A stretch of DNA of 64,000 bases from an uncultured bacterium (lineage in GTDB: Bacteria > Hydrothermota > Tepidihabitantia > CAYHGV01). Position numbers and translations under genes: made by a program. The stretch covers positions 8,179 to 72,178 of the forward strand of contig CAYHGV010000001.1 of NCBI GenBank assembly GCA_964356135.1, read 5' to 3'. Shown here piece by piece: positions 1-51,968 of this stretch. Below the pieces are notes generated by a model. That model had not been told where the DNA came from, made no database searches, and saw only the letters and a program-made list of their open reading frames with translations. Within the stretch, counting starts at the first letter, position 1. The number at the start of each line of letters is the position of its first letter.

Positions 1-68
1 TCCGGCTGTGGACGGTGCATCCGGGGCTGCACTGCCCGCATCGACATCCGAAAGATCATTCAAGCGGT

Positions 69-911
69 ATGATCGACAGACAGAGCAGAGGAGCCGTGAA
101 TCCCTACGAACCGAAGCAGGCGAAACTGCTGACAGTGATTGACGAGACCCCGACGATTAAAACCTTCGGATTAGAGGTTCGGCCGCCGATTGAATTTGAA
201 GCGGGTCAGTTTATTGAACTGACCGTGCCCGGCGTCGGTGAAGCGCCCTTTACCCCTTCATCTTCGCCGTCCGACCGGGATAAACTCGAAGTTACGATCA
301 TGAAGGTCGGCCAGGTTACTTCGAAGTTATTTGAATTAAAACCGGGTGCTTCGTTGGGGATCCGGGGACCGTACGGTAAGCGCTATCCGCTTGAAAAATT
401 CGAGGGCAAAGAGATTCTGATTGTCGGTGGAGGAGTGGGGCTGGCACCGTTACGAGCGCTTTTTTTTGCGTTGATCGCCGAGCCACTGCGGTATAGTAAA
501 ATCGTCGTTCGCTACGGTGCCCGGACGCCGAAGGATATTCTCTTTAAACCGGAGCTGGTCCGGTGGCGAGAACTGGCAGGAGTCGATTTTTTACAGACGG
601 TGGATGTGGCGGATGAGTCCTGGGCGGGAAAGGTGGGAGTGGTGACGACGATTCTCGATGCGGTTCCGATCAAGTCCCTGAACAATAGCGTCGCGGTGGT
701 GTGCGGCCCACCGTTGATGATGAAGTTCGTGACCGAGCGGTTATTAGCGATCGGGTTTCGAGGTTCCAATATTTATTTGTCGATGGAAAAAAACATGTCG
801 TGCGGTGCAGGAAAGTGCGGTCACTGCCGGATGGGAAGTCTGTTTCTCTGTGAAGACGGGCCGGTGGTGACCTGGGATGACGTGAAAGAGATTGAGGACC
901 CGTTCTTATGA
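69..911 (+). CDS. Hydrogenase gamma-subunit-like FAD/NAD(P)-binding oxidoreductase with a C-terminal 2Fe-2S site (HydG/AsrB/PyrK family). The frame is open back to the window edge (ORF track starts at 15), so the true start may lie upstream.
   Basis: Read by eye, it resembles P. furiosus sulfhydrogenase gamma: NPYxP...TFxL near the N-terminus, GIRGPYG, and a C-terminal CGAGKCGHCRMGSLFLCEDGP cysteine cluster. The stop overlaps the first unit of a 14-bp tandem repeat. Confidence 0.7.
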   Translation: MIDRQSRGAVNPYEPKQAKLLTVIDETPTIKTFGLEVRPPIEFEAGQFIELTVPGVGEAPFTPSSSPSDRDKLEVTIMKVGQVTSKLFELKPGASLGIRGPYGKRYPLEKFEGKEILIVGGGVGLAPLRALFFALIAEPLRYSKIVVRYGARTPKDILFKPELVRWRELAGVDFLQTVDVADESWAGKVGVVTTILDAVPIKSLNNSVAVVCGPPLMMKFVTERLLAIGFRGSNIYLSMEKNMSCGAGKCGHCRMGSLFLCEDGPVVTWDDVKEIEDPFL

Positions 912-961
912 AGGTGCCCTTATGAAGGTGCCCTTATGAAGGTGCCCTTATGAAGGTTGCA
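906..961 (+). repeat. 14-bp tandem repeat TTATGAAGGTGCCC: three perfect copies plus one diverged copy. It spans the hydG-like stop codon and the fdhA-like start codon.
   Basis: Direct reading: units at 906-919, 920-933 and 934-947, with a diverged unit at 948-961. Each unit carries an AAGGTG Shine-Dalgarno-like hexamer and an ATG, placed so that the AAGGTG of one unit sits 5 nt upstream of the ATG of the next. Confidence 0.85.
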
Positions 962-2584
962 CCGACGACCTGTCCGTTCTGTCTCTACGGCTGCGAACTG
1001 GGAATCGCCATCGACCAGGGTGCGATCAAAGGGGTTGAGTACCGCAAAGATTCAGAGATAAATCAGGGCCGGCTCTGCGCCCGCGGTAACGGCGCAGCCT
1101 GGCTGTTAGACCATCCCCGGCGGCTGACCGAGCCAATTATTGAAGGACGGAGGACCGATTGGCTGCGGGCGTGGACCGAGATCGAGAAAATTCTCAAAGC
1201 GACCAGGGTGCAGGAGATAGCCGTTACCCTCGATAAAAATCTGACTCAGGAAGAGGCGAGTGTGATTGCAGGATTTGCCCAGGCGTTCGGGATTGAAACC
1301 GTCGGCTCGAGTTATTTAGAACCGGAAGGTTATTTCCAGTATCGGCTGCCAGGGGTCAGATCCGCTCAATTGACTGACATCCGGGAGGCAGACCTTTTTA
1401 TTCTCATCGGCGATGTCCTGAACCAGATGCCGGTGCTGGCAAAGCCGGTGCTCGATGCCCGGTATCGGGAGCGGCAGCACCGGATCGTGGTGATCGATTC
1501 AATTCACACCCGGACCGGTTTTTTTGCAGACCGGTTCATCCGGGTCGAACCCGGCTCCGAGCCGTTGTTGCTGTTAGGGGTTTACGAGCGAGTTCAGGGA
1601 AAGCCCGCGCCGGCGACCGGCGATAAGATTGCCCAGGCATCGGGAGTCCCGATCGAGCAGATCGAAGGACTGTCAGCGATGGTGAATCAAGCCCGGCGGG
1701 TGGTGGTTGCTGCGGGAACGACGCTGGGCAGGGTAGAAATGCCGTTTCTCTTCGCTTTGGCGCCCCAGCTGCTTGCCTCAGTAGCTCCGGGCAAGATTAC
1801 ATTTTTAGCAGCTGGCGAAGCGCGGTGCCTGGTTAGCGGTAAAGGATTCGGGGAGATTATGTCGTTAGTAAAAAACAGAAAGATCAAGGTCCTCTGGAAT
1901 TTTGGCGAATCGTTTCCCTTTGATTATCCCCAGCTGGACCCGATATTGAAAAAATTGGATATGCTGATAACGACCGCAACCTTCATTCCGGGGAAAAAAG
2001 GTGGGGCATTGATTCTACCGGTACCATCCAACCTTGAGAAGACCGGTACGATTCCGACGTTGTGGGGGGAGGGCAGGCTGACCCAGCCGGTGGTGCCGCC
2101 CAGTGGCGTAAAGTCGATCGGCGAGATCCTGAACCAGACCGCTTCCCGGTTGGGCATCGGTTTCAGCCCCCGAGCGACTGAAATGAGCCGGCTGGTTGCG
2201 CCGGACGAGGTCTTGAGGGTTGCGGAGGATTATTTAGATGAACGGTTGAAGCCGAAACGGAGACGAACCTATCCATTTATTCTGGTCGGAGAAAAACCGG
2301 CAATAGAATTTCAGGGATTTTTTGTCGATTCGAAAAATCGGTTGAAGCTGAATCCGGTTGATTGCACCGCTTTAAATCTGAGAACCAGCGAGACGGTAGT
2401 GGTCGATACCGCGGAGGGGACGGAAGAATTCATTGTCGAGCGTTCGCCATCGGTGCCCCGAGCGGTCGTCGCTTGTTCGGTAAACCGGCGAGAGAACCGG
2501 CGGTTATTTGAGCCCGTGATTGACAAGACAACCGGCGATTGTATAATTCCATTCGCCCTTGCTAAGGTATGGAAAAAAATCTGA
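950..2584 (+). CDS. Molybdopterin-oxidoreductase family protein, formate dehydrogenase H (FdhF)-like. It has the N-terminal 4Fe-4S motif but no Cys or Sec at the catalytic position.
   Basis: N-terminal CPFCLYGCEL...C motif (CxxCxxxC...C). The middle domains align to E. coli FdhF by eye (e.g. HRIVVIDSIHTRTG against KIIVCDPRKIETA). There is no Cys and no in-frame TGA between residues 44 and about 290. The protein is 544 aa against about 715 for FdhF. Confidence 0.75.
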   Translation: MKVAPTTCPFCLYGCELGIAIDQGAIKGVEYRKDSEINQGRLCARGNGAAWLLDHPRRLTEPIIEGRRTDWLRAWTEIEKILKATRVQEIAVTLDKNLTQEEASVIAGFAQAFGIETVGSSYLEPEGYFQYRLPGVRSAQLTDIREADLFILIGDVLNQMPVLAKPVLDARYRERQHRIVVIDSIHTRTGFFADRFIRVEPGSEPLLLLGVYERVQGKPAPATGDKIAQASGVPIEQIEGLSAMVNQARRVVVAAGTTLGRVEMPFLFALAPQLLASVAPGKITFLAAGEARCLVSGKGFGEIMSLVKNRKIKVLWNFGESFPFDYPQLDPILKKLDMLITTATFIPGKKGGALILPVPSNLEKTGTIPTLWGEGRLTQPVVPPSGVKSIGEILNQTASRLGIGFSPRATEMSRLVAPDEVLRVAEDYLDERLKPKRRRTYPFILVGEKPAIEFQGFFVDSKNRLKLNPVDCTALNLRTSETVVVDTAEGTEEFIVERSPSVPRAVVACSVNRRENRRLFEPVIDKTTGDCIIPFALAKVWKKI

Positions 2585-3036
2585 TCGTCGATCTCGACTA
2601 CTGCATCGGCTGCCAATCCTGCGAGGCAGCATGTCGGGCTGCGTTTAAAGGTGAGGCGAGAATCCGCTACGGCTGGGTACGGCAGAGCGCATTGATACCT
2701 GCGCCCTGCCGGCACTGCGCAGACCCGCTGTGTGCGAAAGCCTGTCCCGAATCGGCAATGGTAAGAGACGAAACGACCGGTTTCGTCTATCGCCGGAGCT
2801 TTCTCTGTATCGGATGCCATTCTTGTATCTATGCCTGTCCGTTCGGGGTCTTAGAGCCGACGCTGGTGCGGCACGTGGTCATGAAGTGTGACTACTGTAA
2901 AGACCGGCACGAGGGTCCGCGCTGTGCCGCGAGCTGTCCTTCGGGTGCGCTTTCGTTCGTAGCGGCAGAGGAAACTGTCAAGTCACGGGTCGGCGCCCGC
3001 TCTATTTCGCATTCGTCCTTCTGGCGGAGGACCTGA
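2569..3036 (+). CDS. 4Fe-4S ferredoxin-type electron-transfer subunit, like HycB/HyfA/FdhB. It has four CxxCxxCxxxCP-type motifs.
   Basis: The motifs are CIGCQSCEAAC, CRHCADPLCAKACP, CIGCHSCIYACP and CDYCKDRHEGPRCAASCP. The gene overlaps the upstream gene by 16 nt. Confidence 0.8.
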   Translation: MEKNLIVDLDYCIGCQSCEAACRAAFKGEARIRYGWVRQSALIPAPCRHCADPLCAKACPESAMVRDETTGFVYRRSFLCIGCHSCIYACPFGVLEPTLVRHVVMKCDYCKDRHEGPRCAASCPSGALSFVAAEETVKSRVGARSISHSSFWRRT

Positions 3037-3127
3037 TAATGAATCACGGAGGGTCAAGGCGATTGACATGGAGTGACACGGACGAGTGTGCACGGTGGAC
3101 AGTGAACTTTTCATGTGGGGATTCCCG

Positions 3128-4051
3128 ATGGTAGGTTCGGTACTAAAAATACTCTTCTCCTTCCTTATTTTCCCGGGATTTTTATTCGCCGCGATTGTCG
3201 GGTTCTTCTTAACCTGGTTCGACCGGATGGTTTCCGCCCGCATCCAGTGGCGGGTCGGGCCGCCCTGGTTTCAGCCGTTTGCCGATTTTTTCAAGCTGCT
3301 CTTGAAAGAATCGACGATACCGGACGGAGTACCCCGGGTCATTTTTCTCGGTGCACCGATACTCAGTCTTACCGGCATTACGATAGCGGCGGCAATGCTC
3401 GGGTTTATGAATCTCTATCCCCGGAGTTCATTTATCGGGGATCTGGTCGTGGTGGTCTATTTTTTAGCTTTTGTTCCCTTAGGGATAGTTATCGGTGGTT
3501 CAGCTTCCAAGAATCCGTTAGGAGTGGTGGGGGCAATACGGGAGATGAATCTCTATTTCGCCTATGAACTGCCGTTACTGATCTGCGTCGTTCTGGCGAT
3601 AATCAAGACGCACAGCCTCAAAATCGGAGAGATGATTCTCTACCAGCAGGCGCACGGTCCGGTGCTGTATTCAGTATCGGGCGCAATCGCATTCGTTGTT
3701 GTGCTGATAGCGACCCAGGCGAAGCTGGGCTATGCGCCGTTCGATATTCCCGAGGCCGAGCAGGAGATTATGGCCGGACCGTATATTGAGTATTCGGGGG
3801 TGGCGCTGGCGCTGTATAAGCTTACCCGGGCAATCACTTTTTTTGTGATGCCGGTGTTGATGATCACTATTTTCTGGGGCGGCGTGCGCGACCTCTGGGC
3901 AATTCCAAAATTTATTCTCATTGTAGTTCTGGTCATTCTCATAAAAAATACCAATCCTCGACTGCGAATCGACCAGGCACTGAAATTCTTCTGGTTCGGT
4001 TTAGGAACGGCTTCCGCGGTCGGTATGATCCTGGCGTTAACCGGACTATGA
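3128..4051 (+). CDS. Membrane subunit of the NuoH/HycD/MbhM family. The ORF track begins at 3086; the ATG at 3128, which has a GGGGA hexamer upstream, is the more likely start.
   Basis: The protein is polytopic and hydrophobic, with RIQWRVGPPWFQPFADFFKLLLKE, which is the NuoH signature R.GP..G..QP.AD..K. The downstream gene overlaps it by 4 nt. Confidence 0.75.
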   Translation: MVGSVLKILFSFLIFPGFLFAAIVGFFLTWFDRMVSARIQWRVGPPWFQPFADFFKLLLKESTIPDGVPRVIFLGAPILSLTGITIAAAMLGFMNLYPRSSFIGDLVVVVYFLAFVPLGIVIGGSASKNPLGVVGAIREMNLYFAYELPLLICVVLAIIKTHSLKIGEMILYQQAHGPVLYSVSGAIAFVVVLIATQAKLGYAPFDIPEAEQEIMAGPYIEYSGVALALYKLTRAITFFVMPVLMITIFWGGVRDLWAIPKFILIVVLVILIKNTNPRLRIDQALKFFWFGLGTASAVGMILALTGL

Positions 4052-4464
4052 GAGACATCCGACGCTGGGGTTTGAAAAAGTCGCCCTGGGTTTTCCATGT
4101 TTCGGTCAGCTCGTGCAACAACTGCGACATCGAAATTCTCGACGCGCTCACCCCTCGTTTCGACCCGGAACGATTGGGGGTGGTGCTGGTCGGTTCACCC
4201 CGGCATGCGGACGTGCTGTTGGTCACCGGTGTTGTCAATCGGATGTGTGTCGACCGACTGCTGCGGGTTTATACCGAAACGGCAAAACCCTGTCTGGTCG
4301 TTGGGGTTGGAACCTGTGCCTGCGGTATCGGGATTTTCCAGGACGGCTACAATACCGCCGGGCCGTTAGACCGGCATATCCCGGTTGATGTCTACATTCC
4401 GGGCTGTCCCCCAAAACCGGAGGCGATTATTTTAGGGATTGCCAAACTGCTCGCAAAGATATGA
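4048..4464 (+). CDS. [NiFe] hydrogenase small subunit of the NuoB/HycG/MbhJ type, carrying the proximal 4Fe-4S cluster.
   Basis: CNNCDIE...GTCACGIG...CPP(K)P cysteine pattern typical of NuoB-like small subunits; 138 aa. Confidence 0.85.
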   Translation: MRDIRRWGLKKSPWVFHVSVSSCNNCDIEILDALTPRFDPERLGVVLVGSPRHADVLLVTGVVNRMCVDRLLRVYTETAKPCLVVGVGTCACGIGIFQDGYNTAGPLDRHIPVDVYIPGCPPKPEAIILGIAKLLAKI

Positions 4465-4913
4465 TTGTCGAAGAAATCAAACTGCGGTTTCCCGATTTTG
4501 AACTGCATGAGCACGCTGCCCGGCGGCTCTACCTCACCGTTCCCCGGGAACGGCTGGGCGAAGTCGGGCGCTTCCTGTTTCTGGAAAAAGGAGCGCGGCT
4601 CTCGACTGCGACCGGCACCGATACCCGGGCAGGTTTTGAGCTGCTCTACCATTTCTCCTTAGATACCGAGGGGACGTTTGTTTCGGTGCGAACGGTCGTT
4701 CCAAAAGACGATCCGAATGTTGAGTCCCTGGCGAGCTTTATGCCGGCGGCAAACTGGATTGAGCGTGAGATCTTCGACCTCGTCGGCGTGGTTTTTTTGG
4801 GCCATCCGAATCTGAAGCGGCTGCTTTCCGCAGAGGATGTGCCGGAAGACCACCGGCCATTGCGGAGGGATTTTGATGGGAATGACGATAAGATTAAACC
4901 ACCGAGAACATAG
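4461..4913 (+). CDS. NuoC/HycE N-terminal-domain-like subunit (the 30-kDa subunit). Here it is a separate gene rather than fused to the large subunit.
   Basis: NWIEREIFDLVGVVFLGHPNLKRLL matches the NuoC signature ExExxDxxGxxFxGHP. Confidence 0.8.
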   Translation: MIVEEIKLRFPDFELHEHAARRLYLTVPRERLGEVGRFLFLEKGARLSTATGTDTRAGFELLYHFSLDTEGTFVSVRTVVPKDDPNVESLASFMPAANWIEREIFDLVGVVFLGHPNLKRLLSAEDVPEDHRPLRRDFDGNDDKIKPPRT

Positions 4914-5077
4914 AGAAATGGTAATCGAGCAGAGAGAGTCTCCAGGTTATAGGGTAACGGTAACGATGCCCGTCCCGTCAGTCGTTGATGGGCAAGGGTA
5001 TTTACATGCCGTTACCGTAGCCCTGCTCCGAAACGGGCGTCATAACCCTGACCTGGTTATTTATAACTTAAATTCCC

Positions 5078-6268
5078 ATGGAAGTTAGTCGCAGAATCGT
5101 TCCGATCGGACCGTTCCATCCGCTCCAGGAGGAGCCGGAATTTTTCAAGCTGATAGTCGAAGGCGAAAAGGTGGTCGGGCTCGAAATTACTATCGGCTAC
5201 AACCACCGCGGCCATGAGCTGTTATGCCAGAATCGGACCTACGAACAGATTCCCTACGTGGTCGAACGGATCTGCGGGATATGTTCGAACTCCCATCCGT
5301 TGGCGTATGTGCTGGCGGTAGAAGATCTGGCAAAGATTGAGGTGCCGGTCCGTGCCCATTATATCCGAACGGTCATTGATGAGCTCCAGCGTATCCACTC
5401 CCATCTCTTATGGTTGGGTCTGGCCGGACACTTCATCGGCTACAATACGGTCTGGATGTGGTCCTGGCGCTACCGCGAGGATGTGCTCGACATTTTTGAA
5501 CTCATCACCGGTAATCGTCAGAATTATGCGATGAATAAGATCGGTGGTGTGCGCCGGGATATAGTGGAAGAGGATATTCCCAGGATTCATACGATGCTTG
5601 GCGGTCTCGAAGGGAAAATAAAAAGTTTCATCGGGATGGTTCTGGACGACCCGGTTATCCGGGCACGGTTAGAACGGGTTTGCATCCTGACGAAAGAGCA
5701 AGCCCGAGGTTACGGCGTGTTAGGACCGATCGCCCGGGCTTCGGGGATTGCGATTGATGTGCGCCGGGACGACCCCTATGCCGCTTCGGATTGGGTGAAG
5801 TGGGATATGGTGGTTTACAGCGAAGGCGATATTCTGGCGAAGGCAAAGGTCAGGCTGGTCGAGTGTTTGGAGTCAGTGAGAATTGTCAGGCAGTGCCTGG
5901 ACCGGATGGAAGAGGGGCCGATTGAAACGATGGTCACTGAGATCCCGCCGGGCGAAGGTATCGGCCGGGTTGAGGCGCCGCGCGGCGAAGTCTTTCATTA
6001 TGTACGCTCGGACGGTAGCAATATGCCCAGCCGTCATAAGATTCGGGCTCCGAGTTTCATGAATGTTCCTTCCAATGAAGTGGCGGTAGTCGGCTATTCG
6101 ATTGCCGATGCCGCGCTCTGCCTGGCCGCGGTCGACCCCTGCTACTGCTGTACCGAACGGCTGGCGGCATTTGAAAACGGGAACAAGAGATTCAGCTTTC
6201 AGGAGCTGATTAAGCTTTCCTGGGAAAAAACCGAGGAACTTAAAACTAAATTTAGGATATGCAAATAA
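5078..6268 (+). CDS. Group-4 [NiFe] hydrogenase large (catalytic) subunit, HycE/EchE/MbhL-like, with a C-terminal extension of about 35 aa.
   Basis: The N-terminal Ni-binding motif RICGICSNSH is present. The C-terminal motif is DPCYCCTER (DPCxxCxxR). The protein is 396 aa, and the tail after the C-terminal motif implies maturation by a HycI-type protease. Confidence 0.9.
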   Translation: MEVSRRIVPIGPFHPLQEEPEFFKLIVEGEKVVGLEITIGYNHRGHELLCQNRTYEQIPYVVERICGICSNSHPLAYVLAVEDLAKIEVPVRAHYIRTVIDELQRIHSHLLWLGLAGHFIGYNTVWMWSWRYREDVLDIFELITGNRQNYAMNKIGGVRRDIVEEDIPRIHTMLGGLEGKIKSFIGMVLDDPVIRARLERVCILTKEQARGYGVLGPIARASGIAIDVRRDDPYAASDWVKWDMVVYSEGDILAKAKVRLVECLESVRIVRQCLDRMEEGPIETMVTEIPPGEGIGRVEAPRGEVFHYVRSDGSNMPSRHKIRAPSFMNVPSNEVAVVGYSIADAALCLAAVDPCYCCTERLAAFENGNKRFSFQELIKLSWEKTEELKTKFRICK

Positions 6269-11159: not shown

Positions 11160-11326
11160 TAATGGAACCACAGATGCACACAGATAGACACAGATTAAAC
11201 GAAAATGAATAAGGGAAATTCTTACCGATTGACTGTAGATCGAGTACTATTTAACCATTATGGCTCGTGCGGACCGCTTCGGTCCGAGCGAGCCGAACCA
11301 TTTAACCAATTTTTGGACTGTTTTTA

Positions 11327-12823: not shown

Positions 12824-12943
12824 TATGATACCAAATACTGACCGCAGATGGACGCAGATAGACACAGATAAGAATAACACGAAGTGCTTGGTAACCGGGG
12901 GTGGTTTGTTATTTTACCGATTACCATTTAACCATTTTTTAGT

Positions 12944-14073: not shown

Positions 14074-14164
14074 CACAAAAAGCACAAAGAAGATAATTAT
14101 TTAGGTGTCAAAGAAATTTTCTTAAACTTTGTGTCCTTTGTATCCTTTGTGGTAAAAATTTCAA

Positions 14165-14861: not shown

Positions 14862-15045
14862 CACACGAAGAAACACGAACGGGCACGAAAGGAATATTGG
14901 TAGTGAGCGAAATTCAATTTTCACCAATGAGGTGGAAAACAAAGAATGGTTGGTGGCGCTTCGCTCCACCTACTCTTCGAGTTTCGTGTCAATTCGCAAT
15001 CGTTCGTGTAAATTCGTGGTTTCTTATTTTAGGACTTGGGATAAA
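14862..15045. repeat. CACGAA-box element: a left arm with several ACACGAA/GCACGAA repeats and a right arm with matching TTCGTG repeats. Related copies lie at 23800-23910, 24620-24680, 44040-44200, 16640-16700 (partial) and 14074-14140 (a CACAAA variant).
   Basis: Read directly. The copies at 23800 and 44040 share a core of about 45 nt: GAAATTCG.AGAATAGAG.GA.TG.AAGGA.CTCAAA. Their termini are inverted (TTATCACG...CGTGATAA). Confidence 0.55.
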
Positions 15046-24592: not shown

Positions 24593-24885
24593 GATAATGT
24601 AAACTCGAATCCAGACGTAACCACGAATGGGCACGAAGAGAAACGAAGTAACACGAACGCCTCGTTTCGAGGCGAAATATTAGACTTGAAATGCGAAGCA
24701 TAAGTGGAGTGAAACGATACCTGCAAAACCCGATATTGACTAAATAGGTGAAAAATAAAAAATATTTTTCTTTAATTCGCAATCATTCGAGTAATCTGTC
24801 ACTCGCCATACAGAGTGGCGGGTAAGGCGGACGTGGTTTTTTATCGCTGGATTGAGGGTAAATAATAATTAAGGAGGTGTTGAAT

Positions 24886-31959: not shown

Positions 31960-32094
31960 TTACTATAAATTCTAAATTCGAAGTTCGAAATTCGAAACAA
32001 GCACGCATAATCAAAATACAAAATTCAAAACTGCACTATTCAAATTTTGAGCACTTAGAATTTGGGTATTGTTCTGAATTGAACAGAGCGAGAA

Positions 32095-36607: not shown

Positions 36608-36707
36608 GCTCAACAAAAACAATCGGCAGTTTTATCCACGAAGTGCTTTTAGAAAAACCCGGATTAAAAAATTAAATATCCCCGCGCCGACGCCGGGCGG
36701 AACTTTT

Positions 36708-37826
36708 CTACGATCCTCCTGCCCGTCCGGAATTCCTGTTATCGCGGCGGAATTTAGGCCAGGGACTCGAGGCGAGGGTGCCTGACCCGACCAGAGCGTA
36801 GAGGTAACTATCATACGAGCCGACATAGACGGTTCCATCCAGACCGAGAGCTGGTGACGACCAGATTTCATCGCCCGTTTTGTGTTTCCATTTCAGGCTG
36901 CCATCCGATTTGAGTGCATAGAGGTAGGTATCGCCGGACCCGACATAGATGGTGCCATCCGAACCGACCGCCGGTGATGACCAGATCGAACCACCGGTCG
37001 CATATTTCCACTTGAGCGTGCCGGTCGGGTTTATTGCATACAGGCAGTTATCCTCAGAGCCGACATAGATGGTTCCATCCGGACCAATCGAAGGAGCAGA
37101 CCAGATCCCTTTGCCGGTTGCGAAGCTCCATTGTAAGGTGCTGTCCGGGTTGAGCGCATAGAGGTTTTTATCCTCCGAGCCGAAATAGATGGTTCCAGCC
37201 GAGCCGATTGCGGGCGAAGAGATCAACTTATCGCCGGTTTGATATCGCCATTTCAAGTATCCGTCGGGCTGAAGGGCATAGAGACAGCTGTCCTCGGAGC
37301 AAAAATAAATTGTTCCATCCGAACCGATTGCCGGCGAAGACCGTATCCAGCCATTGGTTCTGAATTTCCATTTGGGACTCCCATCACCGGCTATGGCATA
37401 GAGGGCGTTATCAAGTGAGCCGAAATAGACGGTGCCGTCAGGACCGAGGGCGGGCGATGAACGGACCCAGCCGCCGGTTTTGTATTTCCATTTCAGTGTG
37501 CCGTTGGGGTTGAGCGCATAGAGGTAATCATCATCCGAACCGATATAAATCGTTCCATCCGGTCCGATGAGCGGAGAAGAGACGATCGAATAGTTTGTCC
37601 CGTATTCCCATAGTTTATTTCCGTCAGCCTTCAGTGCATAGAACTTGGAATTGATCGAGCCCACATAGACCGATCCATCGGGCGCGATTGCGGGAGATGA
37701 CGAAACCTGCCCGACTGTCCAGAATCTCCACTTCAGCTTCGATGATTTTTCCGTGCAGCCGAACATAAAAACTCCTGCCATCAAGATTCCGATGCAGGAG
37801 CCAACGAACAATTTATGCCTCAACAC
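36708..37826 (-). CDS. Lipoprotein with about 8 PQQ-like beta-propeller repeats (BamB-like fold).
   Basis: Lipobox MFGCTEK, then repeats of the form G.LKWKY.TGG.I.SSPA.G.DGTIY.GS.D..LYA. Confidence 0.75.
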   Translation of the reverse strand: MLRHKLFVGSCIGILMAGVFMFGCTEKSSKLKWRFWTVGQVSSSPAIAPDGSVYVGSINSKFYALKADGNKLWEYGTNYSIVSSPLIGPDGTIYIGSDDDYLYALNPNGTLKWKYKTGGWVRSSPALGPDGTVYFGSLDNALYAIAGDGSPKWKFRTNGWIRSSPAIGSDGTIYFCSEDSCLYALQPDGYLKWRYQTGDKLISSPAIGSAGTIYFGSEDKNLYALNPDSTLQWSFATGKGIWSAPSIGPDGTIYVGSEDNCLYAINPTGTLKWKYATGGSIWSSPAVGSDGTIYVGSGDTYLYALKSDGSLKWKHKTGDEIWSSPALGLDGTVYVGSYDSYLYALVGSGTLASSPWPKFRRDNRNSGRAGGS

Positions 37827-43978: not shown

Positions 43979-44470
43979 AGATGAGAGTAACGGTTTTTAT
44001 CACAACTGTCAAGTTAAGCCATTGAGAGCTCTGCGAAACTACAAAAATTATCACGAAAGCACGAAAGGACGAAATTCGAAGAATAGAGTGATTGCAAGGA
44101 ACTCAAAGCCACGAAAAAATAAGCGTAGTATTTTCAAAAAGTTAGAACCTTTCGTGTTTTCCGGATTTCGTGGTTCACGTGATAAAAAGGACTTTTTCAG
44201 GGGTCTCCCATTAGAACTATGATTAACCACAGAAGACACTGAATCCGCCATAGTGCGTGGCGGAACGGAAGGGTAATTGTTTGTATTTCATTATAATTAT
44301 TCGGTGAGTTCCGTGTCCGCCATGTTGCGTGGCGGATCAGTGGTTAAAAATGATTTTTCCAGGGTGGCCATTTGTTTCGCAGCGTGTAGCAGAAGCAAGA
44401 ATCTACGAGTTCGTATAATCAGTCTTATCAGGACTGGATAAAAATCAGGTCTGTCCCGTGCAACGAGGGA

Positions 44471-51803: not shown

Positions 51804-51968
51804 TAAGTTATTATACACAGAGAGATACAGAGGATTAAATTCTAAATCCCAAATTCTATACCCTAAACAATTTTTAAATCTCAATTTCTTAAATTCCAAA
51901 AGGGTTTGGATATTGATAATTTTTGATTTGTTTAGGATTTCGGATTTAGAAATTAGAATTTATTAAAG

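Follow-up and report, generated by a model that had tools for sequence, protein, structure and literature searches.

A 14-bp Tandem Repeat Multiplying a Stop/Start Junction in a Hydrogenase Operon of an Uncultured WOR-3-like Bacterium

The junction array and its reading frames

The DNA analyzed here is a 64-kb stretch of contig CAYHGV010000001.1 (the window, i.e., the whole stretch of 64,000 nt), and the element in question is a short tandem array at the junction between two genes near its start. Features are on the plus strand unless stated otherwise. The gene upstream of the junction (69-911) encodes a 280-residue, FAD/NAD-binding and 2Fe-2S electron-transfer subunit that is AsrB/HydG-like, and ends with TGA 909-911. 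The gene downstream (950-2584) encodes a 544-residue, short protein of the molybdopterin-oxidoreductase family, which is Fdh-alpha-like in its N-terminal third. At their junction lies the array, at 905-957, for which Tandem Repeats Finder (TRF) gave a period of 14, 3.8 copies, 100% matches and 0 indels over a length of 53 nt. Within 881-980, ...GAGGACCCGTTC is followed by three copies of TTATGAAGGTGCCC, then by TTATGAAGGTTGCACC and then by GACGACC...; sequences flanking the array include, for example, GAGATTGAGGACCCGTTCTTATGAAGGT and GGTTGCACCGACGACCTGTCCGTTC.

An earlier note on this DNA, made by a model from the sequence, had described three perfect tandem 14-bp units followed by a diverged fourth that carries the real start codon, and both TRF and exact matching bore this out. 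The three units are identical and begin at 906, 920 and 934 (906-919, 920-933 and 934-947), while the terminal unit (TTATGAAGGTTGCACC, 948-963) is 16 nt long and carries the real start, ATG 950. The perfect units end ...GGTGCCC, and the terminal unit differs from them by two 1-nt insertions (GGT-GC-CC compared with GGTTGCACC). Translation from ATG 950 gives an N-terminus, MKVAPTTCPFC, that aligns with MAILKTTCPFC of P0001.

The note had also placed the stop codon of the upstream, hydG-like gene in the first unit, where TGA 909-911 indeed overlaps ATG 908 to form an ATGA junction of the ancestral type. It had further reported two mini open reading frames (mini-ORFs) encoding MKVPL, starting at ATG 922 and ATG 936. 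Both are present (922-939 and 936-953), but the correct number is three, as ATG 908 opens another identical one (908-925). What the note missed is that the TGA of each mini-ORF forms an ATGA with the following ATG, in the way the upstream TGA does with ATG 908: TGA 923-925 overlaps ATG 922, TGA 937-939 overlaps ATG 936 and TGA 951-953 overlaps the real start, ATG 950. There is therefore a chain of four consecutive -4 (ATGA) overlaps, at 908-911, 922-925, 936-939 and 950-953. The inserted 42 nt are a multiple of three, so that ATG 908 and ATG 950 share the same frame, which is closed by TGA 923-925. The two real genes are not spaced by a few nucleotides at most, the gap between the upstream stop and ATG 950 being 38 nt (912-949), and because of this gap their coupling would need the mini-ORFs.

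Each ATG in the chain is preceded by a Shine-Dalgarno (SD)-like element. An AAGGTG 5 nt before the next ATG, another feature of the earlier note, can be read directly at 911-916, 925-930 and 939-944, i.e., before ATGs 922, 936 and 950, respectively. ATG 908 has instead a GAGGA (894-898) at a distance of 9 nt, within the last codons of the upstream gene. The anti-SD sequence was assumed to be canonical, the 16S gene not having been found in the window. With it, the AGGUG before ATGs 922, 936 and 950 pairs over 5 bp (-6.3 kcal/mol), and the duplex of GAGGA with the canonical tail has an energy of -5.9 kcal/mol. Canonical strong SDs are used by a subset of the genes in the window.

RNA covering the array (880-990) folds better than shuffled sequences (-37.8 kcal/mol, z = -3.7), with pairing between units that involves AAGG/CCUU and GGUGCC/GGUGCC. 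Such pairing might leave entry dependent on ribosomes that come from upstream, or might simply follow from the repetition. No minus-strand ORF in the list of ORFs spans the array.

Perfect arrays of this length are expected about 1e-17 times in 64 kb of equal composition. In 0.94 Mb, made up of the window and 149 related loci (numbered with the prefix L), only two perfect arrays reached 30 nt and 2.5 copies, one of them being that at 905-957. The other, at L144:1163-1209, consists of AGTTGGTCGTG x 4.3 and belongs to the locus of a distant, non-WOR-3 relative. An exact match to the 14-mer TTATGAAGGTGCCC occurs nowhere else in the window or in the 149 related loci. With up to 2 mismatches allowed, the loci contained four scattered single 14-mers (1-2 mismatches, in L006, L007, L008 and L017), none of them repeated, and the rest of the 64-kb window contained none. 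Because it is not repeated elsewhere in the window or in the other loci, the 14-bp unit is neither a dispersed nor a conserved element.

Orthologous junctions and bridging ORFs in relatives

Locating the upstream stop and the downstream start in 104 related loci yielded a set of 81 distinct junctions (the window included), mostly from metagenome-assembled genomes (MAGs) of WOR-3. A 4-nt overlap was present at 52 of the 81 and a 1-nt overlap at 10, and most of the others lay within a few nucleotides. A perfect tandem repeat was present at one junction, that of the window, and was not found at any of the other 80. In L003-L007 the upstream gene ends ...EDPFL-stop with an ATGA overlap (...TT(A/C)TTATGA), and the window has the same ending at 894-911. 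Deleting 42 nt from the window yields ...CCGTTCTTATGAAGGTTGCACCG..., i.e., a canonical ATGA overlap, and leaves both proteins unchanged. Because this collapse restores the canonical overlap seen in relatives, the array is an expansion of the ancestral stop/start junction and, as judged from the junctions compared, is private to this lineage.

Judged likewise by its proteins, the host is an uncultured WOR-3-like bacterium, whose close homologues all come from metagenomes or MAGs. Exact-protein look-ups of both flanking genes returned no record, and a homology search found no protein in the collection with more than 65% identity. The 544-residue protein had 35 homologues with 31-65% identity, the named ones being from MAGs of candidate division WOR-3. 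Alignment-driven scans of genome and metagenome contigs recovered about 140 related loci, none of them conspecific, with 45% identity at best. In the nearest relative (L001/L002) the two genes are separated by an 85-nt spacer, in which no similarity to the window array could be recognized by eye.

In relatives that have a spacer between the two genes, bridging ORFs of 13-32 codons often run from the upstream stop (at -4, -1 or 0 nt) to the real start (at -4 to +3 nt). At L011:2921-2986, a 20-codon ORF begins within the ATGA at the upstream stop and terminates 2 nt short of the real ATG, and at L013:2941-2986 a 13-codon ORF begins in TAATG and ends 3 nt before the ATG. Diverged ORFs at L028:2942-3004, L083:2927-2989 and L084:1080-1142, each of exactly 20 codons, extend from or beside the stop to an ATGA or GTGA at the real start, and bridging ORFs were noted also at L102:2935-3001 and L001:2915-3013. 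In L073, a spacer of 459 nt is spanned by a 135-residue ORF together with a 15-codon ORF.

We then applied a strict relay rule, under which each hop from stop to start had to fall between -4 and +5 nt. A complete relay path was found in 7 of 10 spacers, compared with an expectation of 0.9 when spacers were fully shuffled, or 2.6 when the relic start was kept fixed. Collapsing the spacers to seven lineages left paths in five (P about 1e-4), and omitting the window and L073 left three of five (P = 0.036, conservative null). When the real start was chosen algorithmically, 6 of 12 spacers had a path, against 1.0-2.35 expected. The pattern within the family is thus suggestive of relay ORFs, although it was found post hoc, depends on the assignment of starts and comes from few independent lineages.

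Some of these spacers have features of their own. The 135-residue ORF of L073 (2523-2930) belongs to the 23S_rRNA_IVP family (PF05635, E = 4e-26) and forms an insertion between the two genes. Its start codon falls within the ATGA at the upstream stop, AAAACTC/TTTTGAG heptamer repeats flank it, and the 15-codon ORF that follows abuts the real start. The spacers (about 58 nt after the upstream stop) of L028, L083, L084 and L102, which come from one WOR-3 subclade, are made up of loose CGAATG(G/C/T) heptamer or octamer repeats, each with an ATG, in place of which L098 (2769-2868) has CACAGATGAACAC-type repeats. Repeats of both kinds resemble the intergenic arrays found elsewhere in the window.

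Origin of the array and its possible roles

The array is probably a genuine tandem expansion private to this lineage, a tolerated product of slippage whose geometry keeps the two genes translationally coupled. On this explanation replication slippage, most likely, multiplied a 14-bp unit containing the ancestral ATGA overlap, and the expansion would have shifted the real start 42 nt downstream and opened the 38-nt gap. Such a gap should by itself break coupling by termination-reinitiation: in E. coli, an intergenic distance of +38 nt lowers reinitiation by 80-90% or abolishes it (PMC10666635). Every unit's ATG lies, however, in frame with the TGA of the next unit, 15 nt on, and because 14 ≡ 2 (mod 3) the gap is tiled by ATGA-joined cistrons of 5 codons (MKVPL) at any copy number. 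Codons 2-3 of each unit (AAG GTG) double as the SD-like AGGUG, 5 nt before the next ATG.

Ribosomes that finish the upstream gene could then pass from each ATG to the following one (908 to 922 to 936 to 950); alternatively or additionally, fresh 30S subunits could load on the SD carried by the repeat. By either route, the downstream hydrogenase module would still be translated. Judged from the anatomy and the literature, terminating ribosomes would most likely be handed over step by step, perhaps together with others that load de novo on the SD within the repeat. Reinitiation needs no more than the final 15 nt of an upstream ORF (PMC10666635), and ATGA/TGATG pairs were strictly coupled in 13 of 14 cases tested (PMC6728339). 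A role in translational coupling is a reasonable inference from the anatomy and the published distance dependence of reinitiation (PMC10666635). The earlier note had suggested that the array could tune such coupling; the anatomy it described holds, and more strongly than it stated, the units being self-contained mini-cistrons at the very site where the family normally has a single ATGA overlap. The repeat, its frames and overlaps, the SD complementarity, the ancestral state of the junction and the lack of a like repeat at the other junctions can be read from the sequences. We infer that the array arose by slippage, that it is crossed by reinitiation in relay, and that it is nearly neutral rather than selected.

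Several points weigh against this explanation. The copy number is that of one assembled sequence and its stability is presumed, and the anti-SD of the organism was assumed, not seen. The pairing between units in the RNA (z = -3.7) could hinder initiation rather than help it. A strict relay path also arises in 9-24% of shuffled window spacers and, with a mod-3 prior of 1/3, the relay layout alone is no evidence of selection. Very short minigenes (of 3-8 codons in the work cited) can cause peptidyl-tRNA to accumulate, which would be a cost (PMC2490762). Finally, a single duplication of the present flanks cannot yield the perfect unit, because the units differ by two indels; as read from the units, the history of the array requires at least three mutational steps.

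Three other origins or readings were tried and set aside. Microhomology-mediated duplication of the present flanks in one step, worked out by hand, would give a period of 12 (GTT...GTT) or 18 (CCC...CCC), neither of which fits. A mobile element or a target-site duplication does not account for at least three head-to-tail copies with nothing between them, of a unit that is not dispersed. Recoding of the TGA was rejected as well: the upstream protein ends where its homologues end, and TGA closes other genes in the window.

The closest known mechanism is termination-reinitiation at ATGA/TGATG overlaps (Huber et al., 2019, PMC6728339; Huber et al., 2023, PMC10666635). The window likewise has a TGA/ATG overlap at 908-911, which recurs in each unit and at the real start, and its genes are of the class in which such overlaps are enriched, i.e., genes for subunits of one complex. 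The known systems, however, have one overlap between two real genes, whereas in the window it is iterated four times with 5-codon cistrons between. We know of no test of serial reinitiation through such short ORFs.

Mycobacterial interspersed repetitive units (MIRUs; Supply et al., 1997, as summarized in PMC12548453 and PMC3184786), the nearest natural analogue of the array, are intercistronic repeats with small ORFs that overlap the flanking stop and start codons. Their tandem copy number varies, as used in MIRU-VNTR (variable-number tandem repeat) typing, and their units are about 40-100 bp long, possibly mobile, and dispersed over some 40-50 loci per genome (PMC12548453; PMC3184786). Like the MIRUs so described, the array in the window lies inside an operon, between co-transcribed genes, with small ORFs coupled at -4 nt, and the MIRUs provide a precedent for a natural short ORF that delivers ribosomes to a downstream gene. 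Unlike them, its unit is only 14 bp long, copies the junction itself instead of being an inserted element, and was found at one locus when the 64-kb window and the related loci were scanned. Beyond the MIRUs, our literature searches did not find a tandem repeat that duplicates a stop/start junction. The array belongs to a known kind of element, the intercistronic repeat with coupled small ORFs, and is made of the 14-bp stop/start junction itself.

All three elements named for engineered bicistronic-design (BCD) couplers (bioRxiv 10.1101/2023.02.09.527918; PMC12548453) are also present in the window: SD1 is represented by the GAGGA before ATG 908, SD2 within the leader by AAGGTG, and the leader stop at the start codon by ATGA. 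Minigenes (PMC2490762, 3-8 codons; the axe-txe minigene, PMC8708949) sequester tRNA or modulate the translation of neighboring genes, and share with the window 5-codon ORFs that have their own SD-like element inside an operon. The BCDs are designed, whereas the array in the window is natural, repeats the arrangement three times and uses leaders just 5 codons long. Known minigenes are single rather than tandem and were studied for toxicity or regulation.

Contingency loci, in which simple sequence repeats (SSRs) cause phase variation, usually have units of 1-9 nt inside an ORF or promoter and switch genes ON or OFF. The array in the window shares with them perfect head-to-tail repeats (3.8 copies at 100%) beside a translation start, which are expected to slip. 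It lies outside two intact ORFs and away from any promoter-like site, however, and cannot act as an ON/OFF switch: because no copy number frameshifts either gene, only graded effects are possible.

A selected rheostat would exploit just such effects. In this alternative, which takes up the VNTR idea of the earlier note, copy number would vary in the population and the mini-cistrons would set the flux of ribosomes from the HydB/HydG-like module to the molybdopterin/hydrogenase module, tuning subunit stoichiometry without ever knocking the genes out. It is conceivable because no copy number can damage either gene, both flanking ORFs and the ATGA chain surviving, by geometry, whatever the number of units. 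The three identical units imply recent or ongoing expansion or homogenization, these genomes contain few perfect arrays (2 per 0.94 Mb), and relatives appear to retain bridging ORFs across their spacers. We nevertheless think a selected rheostat unlikely. The absence of a tandem repeat from all 80 other junctions gives no sign that the lineage uses such a device, and a neutral product of slippage predicts the identical sequence. Still more would be claimed by taking the array as a natural, copy-number-adjustable coupling relay, i.e., a VNTR of self-contained mini-cistrons with which a population sets the flux of ribosomes, and through it the proportion of NAD(P)H-side to molybdopterin/[NiFe]-hydrogenase subunits, while keeping every gene active, and adding a rule for the family that selection keeps bridging ORFs when an ATGA junction is pulled apart; we consider this combination quite unlikely.

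Equally, it seems to us quite improbable that the copy number is an artifact, with fewer perfect units (for example, one) in the genome and the array inflated by assembly or amplification. The sequence comes from an uncultured organism whose close homologues are all metagenomic, and repeats of short period can give rise to loops in de Bruijn graphs when k is small. On the other hand, an array of 53 nt fits within typical reads, and within the largest k-mers that common assemblers use, so that single reads should span it; both flanking genes, moreover, are intact and in register with their homologues. The earlier note had offered an assembly artifact as an alternative, and this holds for the number of perfect units, which alone (1 to 3) could be inflated, but not for the existence of two types of unit. 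A stutter or an assembly loop cannot create a difference of two indels, and for that reason at least one perfect unit and the terminal unit are real. Least likely of all, and in our view highly improbable, is a dedicated regulatory element of another kind, whether a leader peptide (MKVPL) that stalls or senses, a structured RNA switch, an array of protein-binding sites or an internal promoter. The folding of the region (z = -3.7) and the many short-period intergenic arrays of WOR-3 genomes lend this some color. The fold, however, follows automatically from repeating a partly self-complementary unit, and the unit plainly copies the junction rather than the motifs of the genome's other arrays. 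Rfam matched nothing anywhere in the window, a scan of 600-1300 turned up neither promoter-like nor terminator-like sites, and the element is absent from 80 of 80 other distinct junctions, which is not the conservation expected of a leader peptide or attenuator.

If the relay works, the array would be a natural test of serial reinitiation in bacteria through very short cistrons, and of graded subunit stoichiometry set by an intercistronic repeat. It would also inform the debate over whether coupling depends on overlaps or works across gaps (PMC10666635), as well as the design of synthetic couplers. If the array is only a tolerated product of slippage, it would still show how an ATGA junction can be copied with no polar effect, since units of 3n+2 nt restore the chain of overlaps by themselves. 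Either way its importance is modest, as a sequence-level finding in one uncultured genome.

The operon and other repeats in the window

The start codon of the upstream gene, ATG 69, itself overlaps the TGA of the previous gene as ATGA. Its product matched FAD_binding_6, NAD_binding_1 and DHODB_Fe-S_bind in Pfam and, in NCBIfam, AsrB (214 bits) and HydG (sulfhydrogenase gamma, 190 bits), both below the curated cut-off; its C-terminus, ...EDPFL, agrees with those of its homologues. The downstream protein matched Molybdop_Fe4S4 and, weakly, the Molybdopterin domain in Pfam. Its top NCBIfam match, Fdh-alpha, scored 84.5 bits (cut-off 666) and was confined to the N-terminal 211 residues, and its matches in the PDB were formate dehydrogenases, again N-terminal only, with E-values of 1e-14 and weaker. 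The names hydG and fdhA, used in the earlier note, are acceptable only as loose labels, the NCBIfam matches behind them being below cut-off.

Behind the junction, the rest of the operon spans 2569-6268, with equal gene order in L001-L007. As assigned by Pfam and NCBIfam, it encodes a HycB-like 4Fe-4S protein (2569-3036), a NuoH/HycD-like membrane subunit (3086-4051), a hydrogenase small subunit (4048-4464), a 30-kDa subunit (4461-4913) and a [NiFe] large subunit of group-4 type (5078-6268) with the ligand motifs RICGIC and DPCYCC. ATGA overlaps are habitual in this operon, occurring at ATG 4048 and ATG 4461 as well as at ATG 69. Window positions 1-6268 and L001-L007 represent a conserved WOR-3 operon for a Fer4_22 protein, a HydG/AsrB-like flavoprotein, a molybdopterin protein of about 545 residues, a HycB-like ferredoxin and a group-4 [NiFe] hydrogenase. 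None of the curated Fdh, NuoG or Fwd models comes near its cut-off with the molybdopterin protein.

The window also contains repeats of other kinds. Six clusters of 3-4 direct repeats with a period of 8-10 nt and cores of CACGAA(A/G), CACAGAT or CACAAAG (0.035 clusters expected in shuffles) lie at 11170-11204, 12844-12869, 14127-14150 (minus strand), 14865-14890, 24623-24658 and 44053-44074; on a crude gene map, three are intergenic, one lies across a gene start and two are inside ORFs. Intergenic heptamer arrays were found at 31967-31997, 32012-32030 and 51931-51962, of the AAATTCG type (4.4 copies), the CAAAATA type and the TTTAGGA type (4.6 copies), respectively. The last of these ends 6 nt before ATG 51969 and recalls the arrays of TAACTGA heptamers that precede start codons in Beggiatoaceae (PMC4679880). 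At 36910-37202, within a minus-strand ORF (about 36707-37781), a repeat with a period of 120 nt (2.4 copies, 72% identity) is probably a repeated protein domain.

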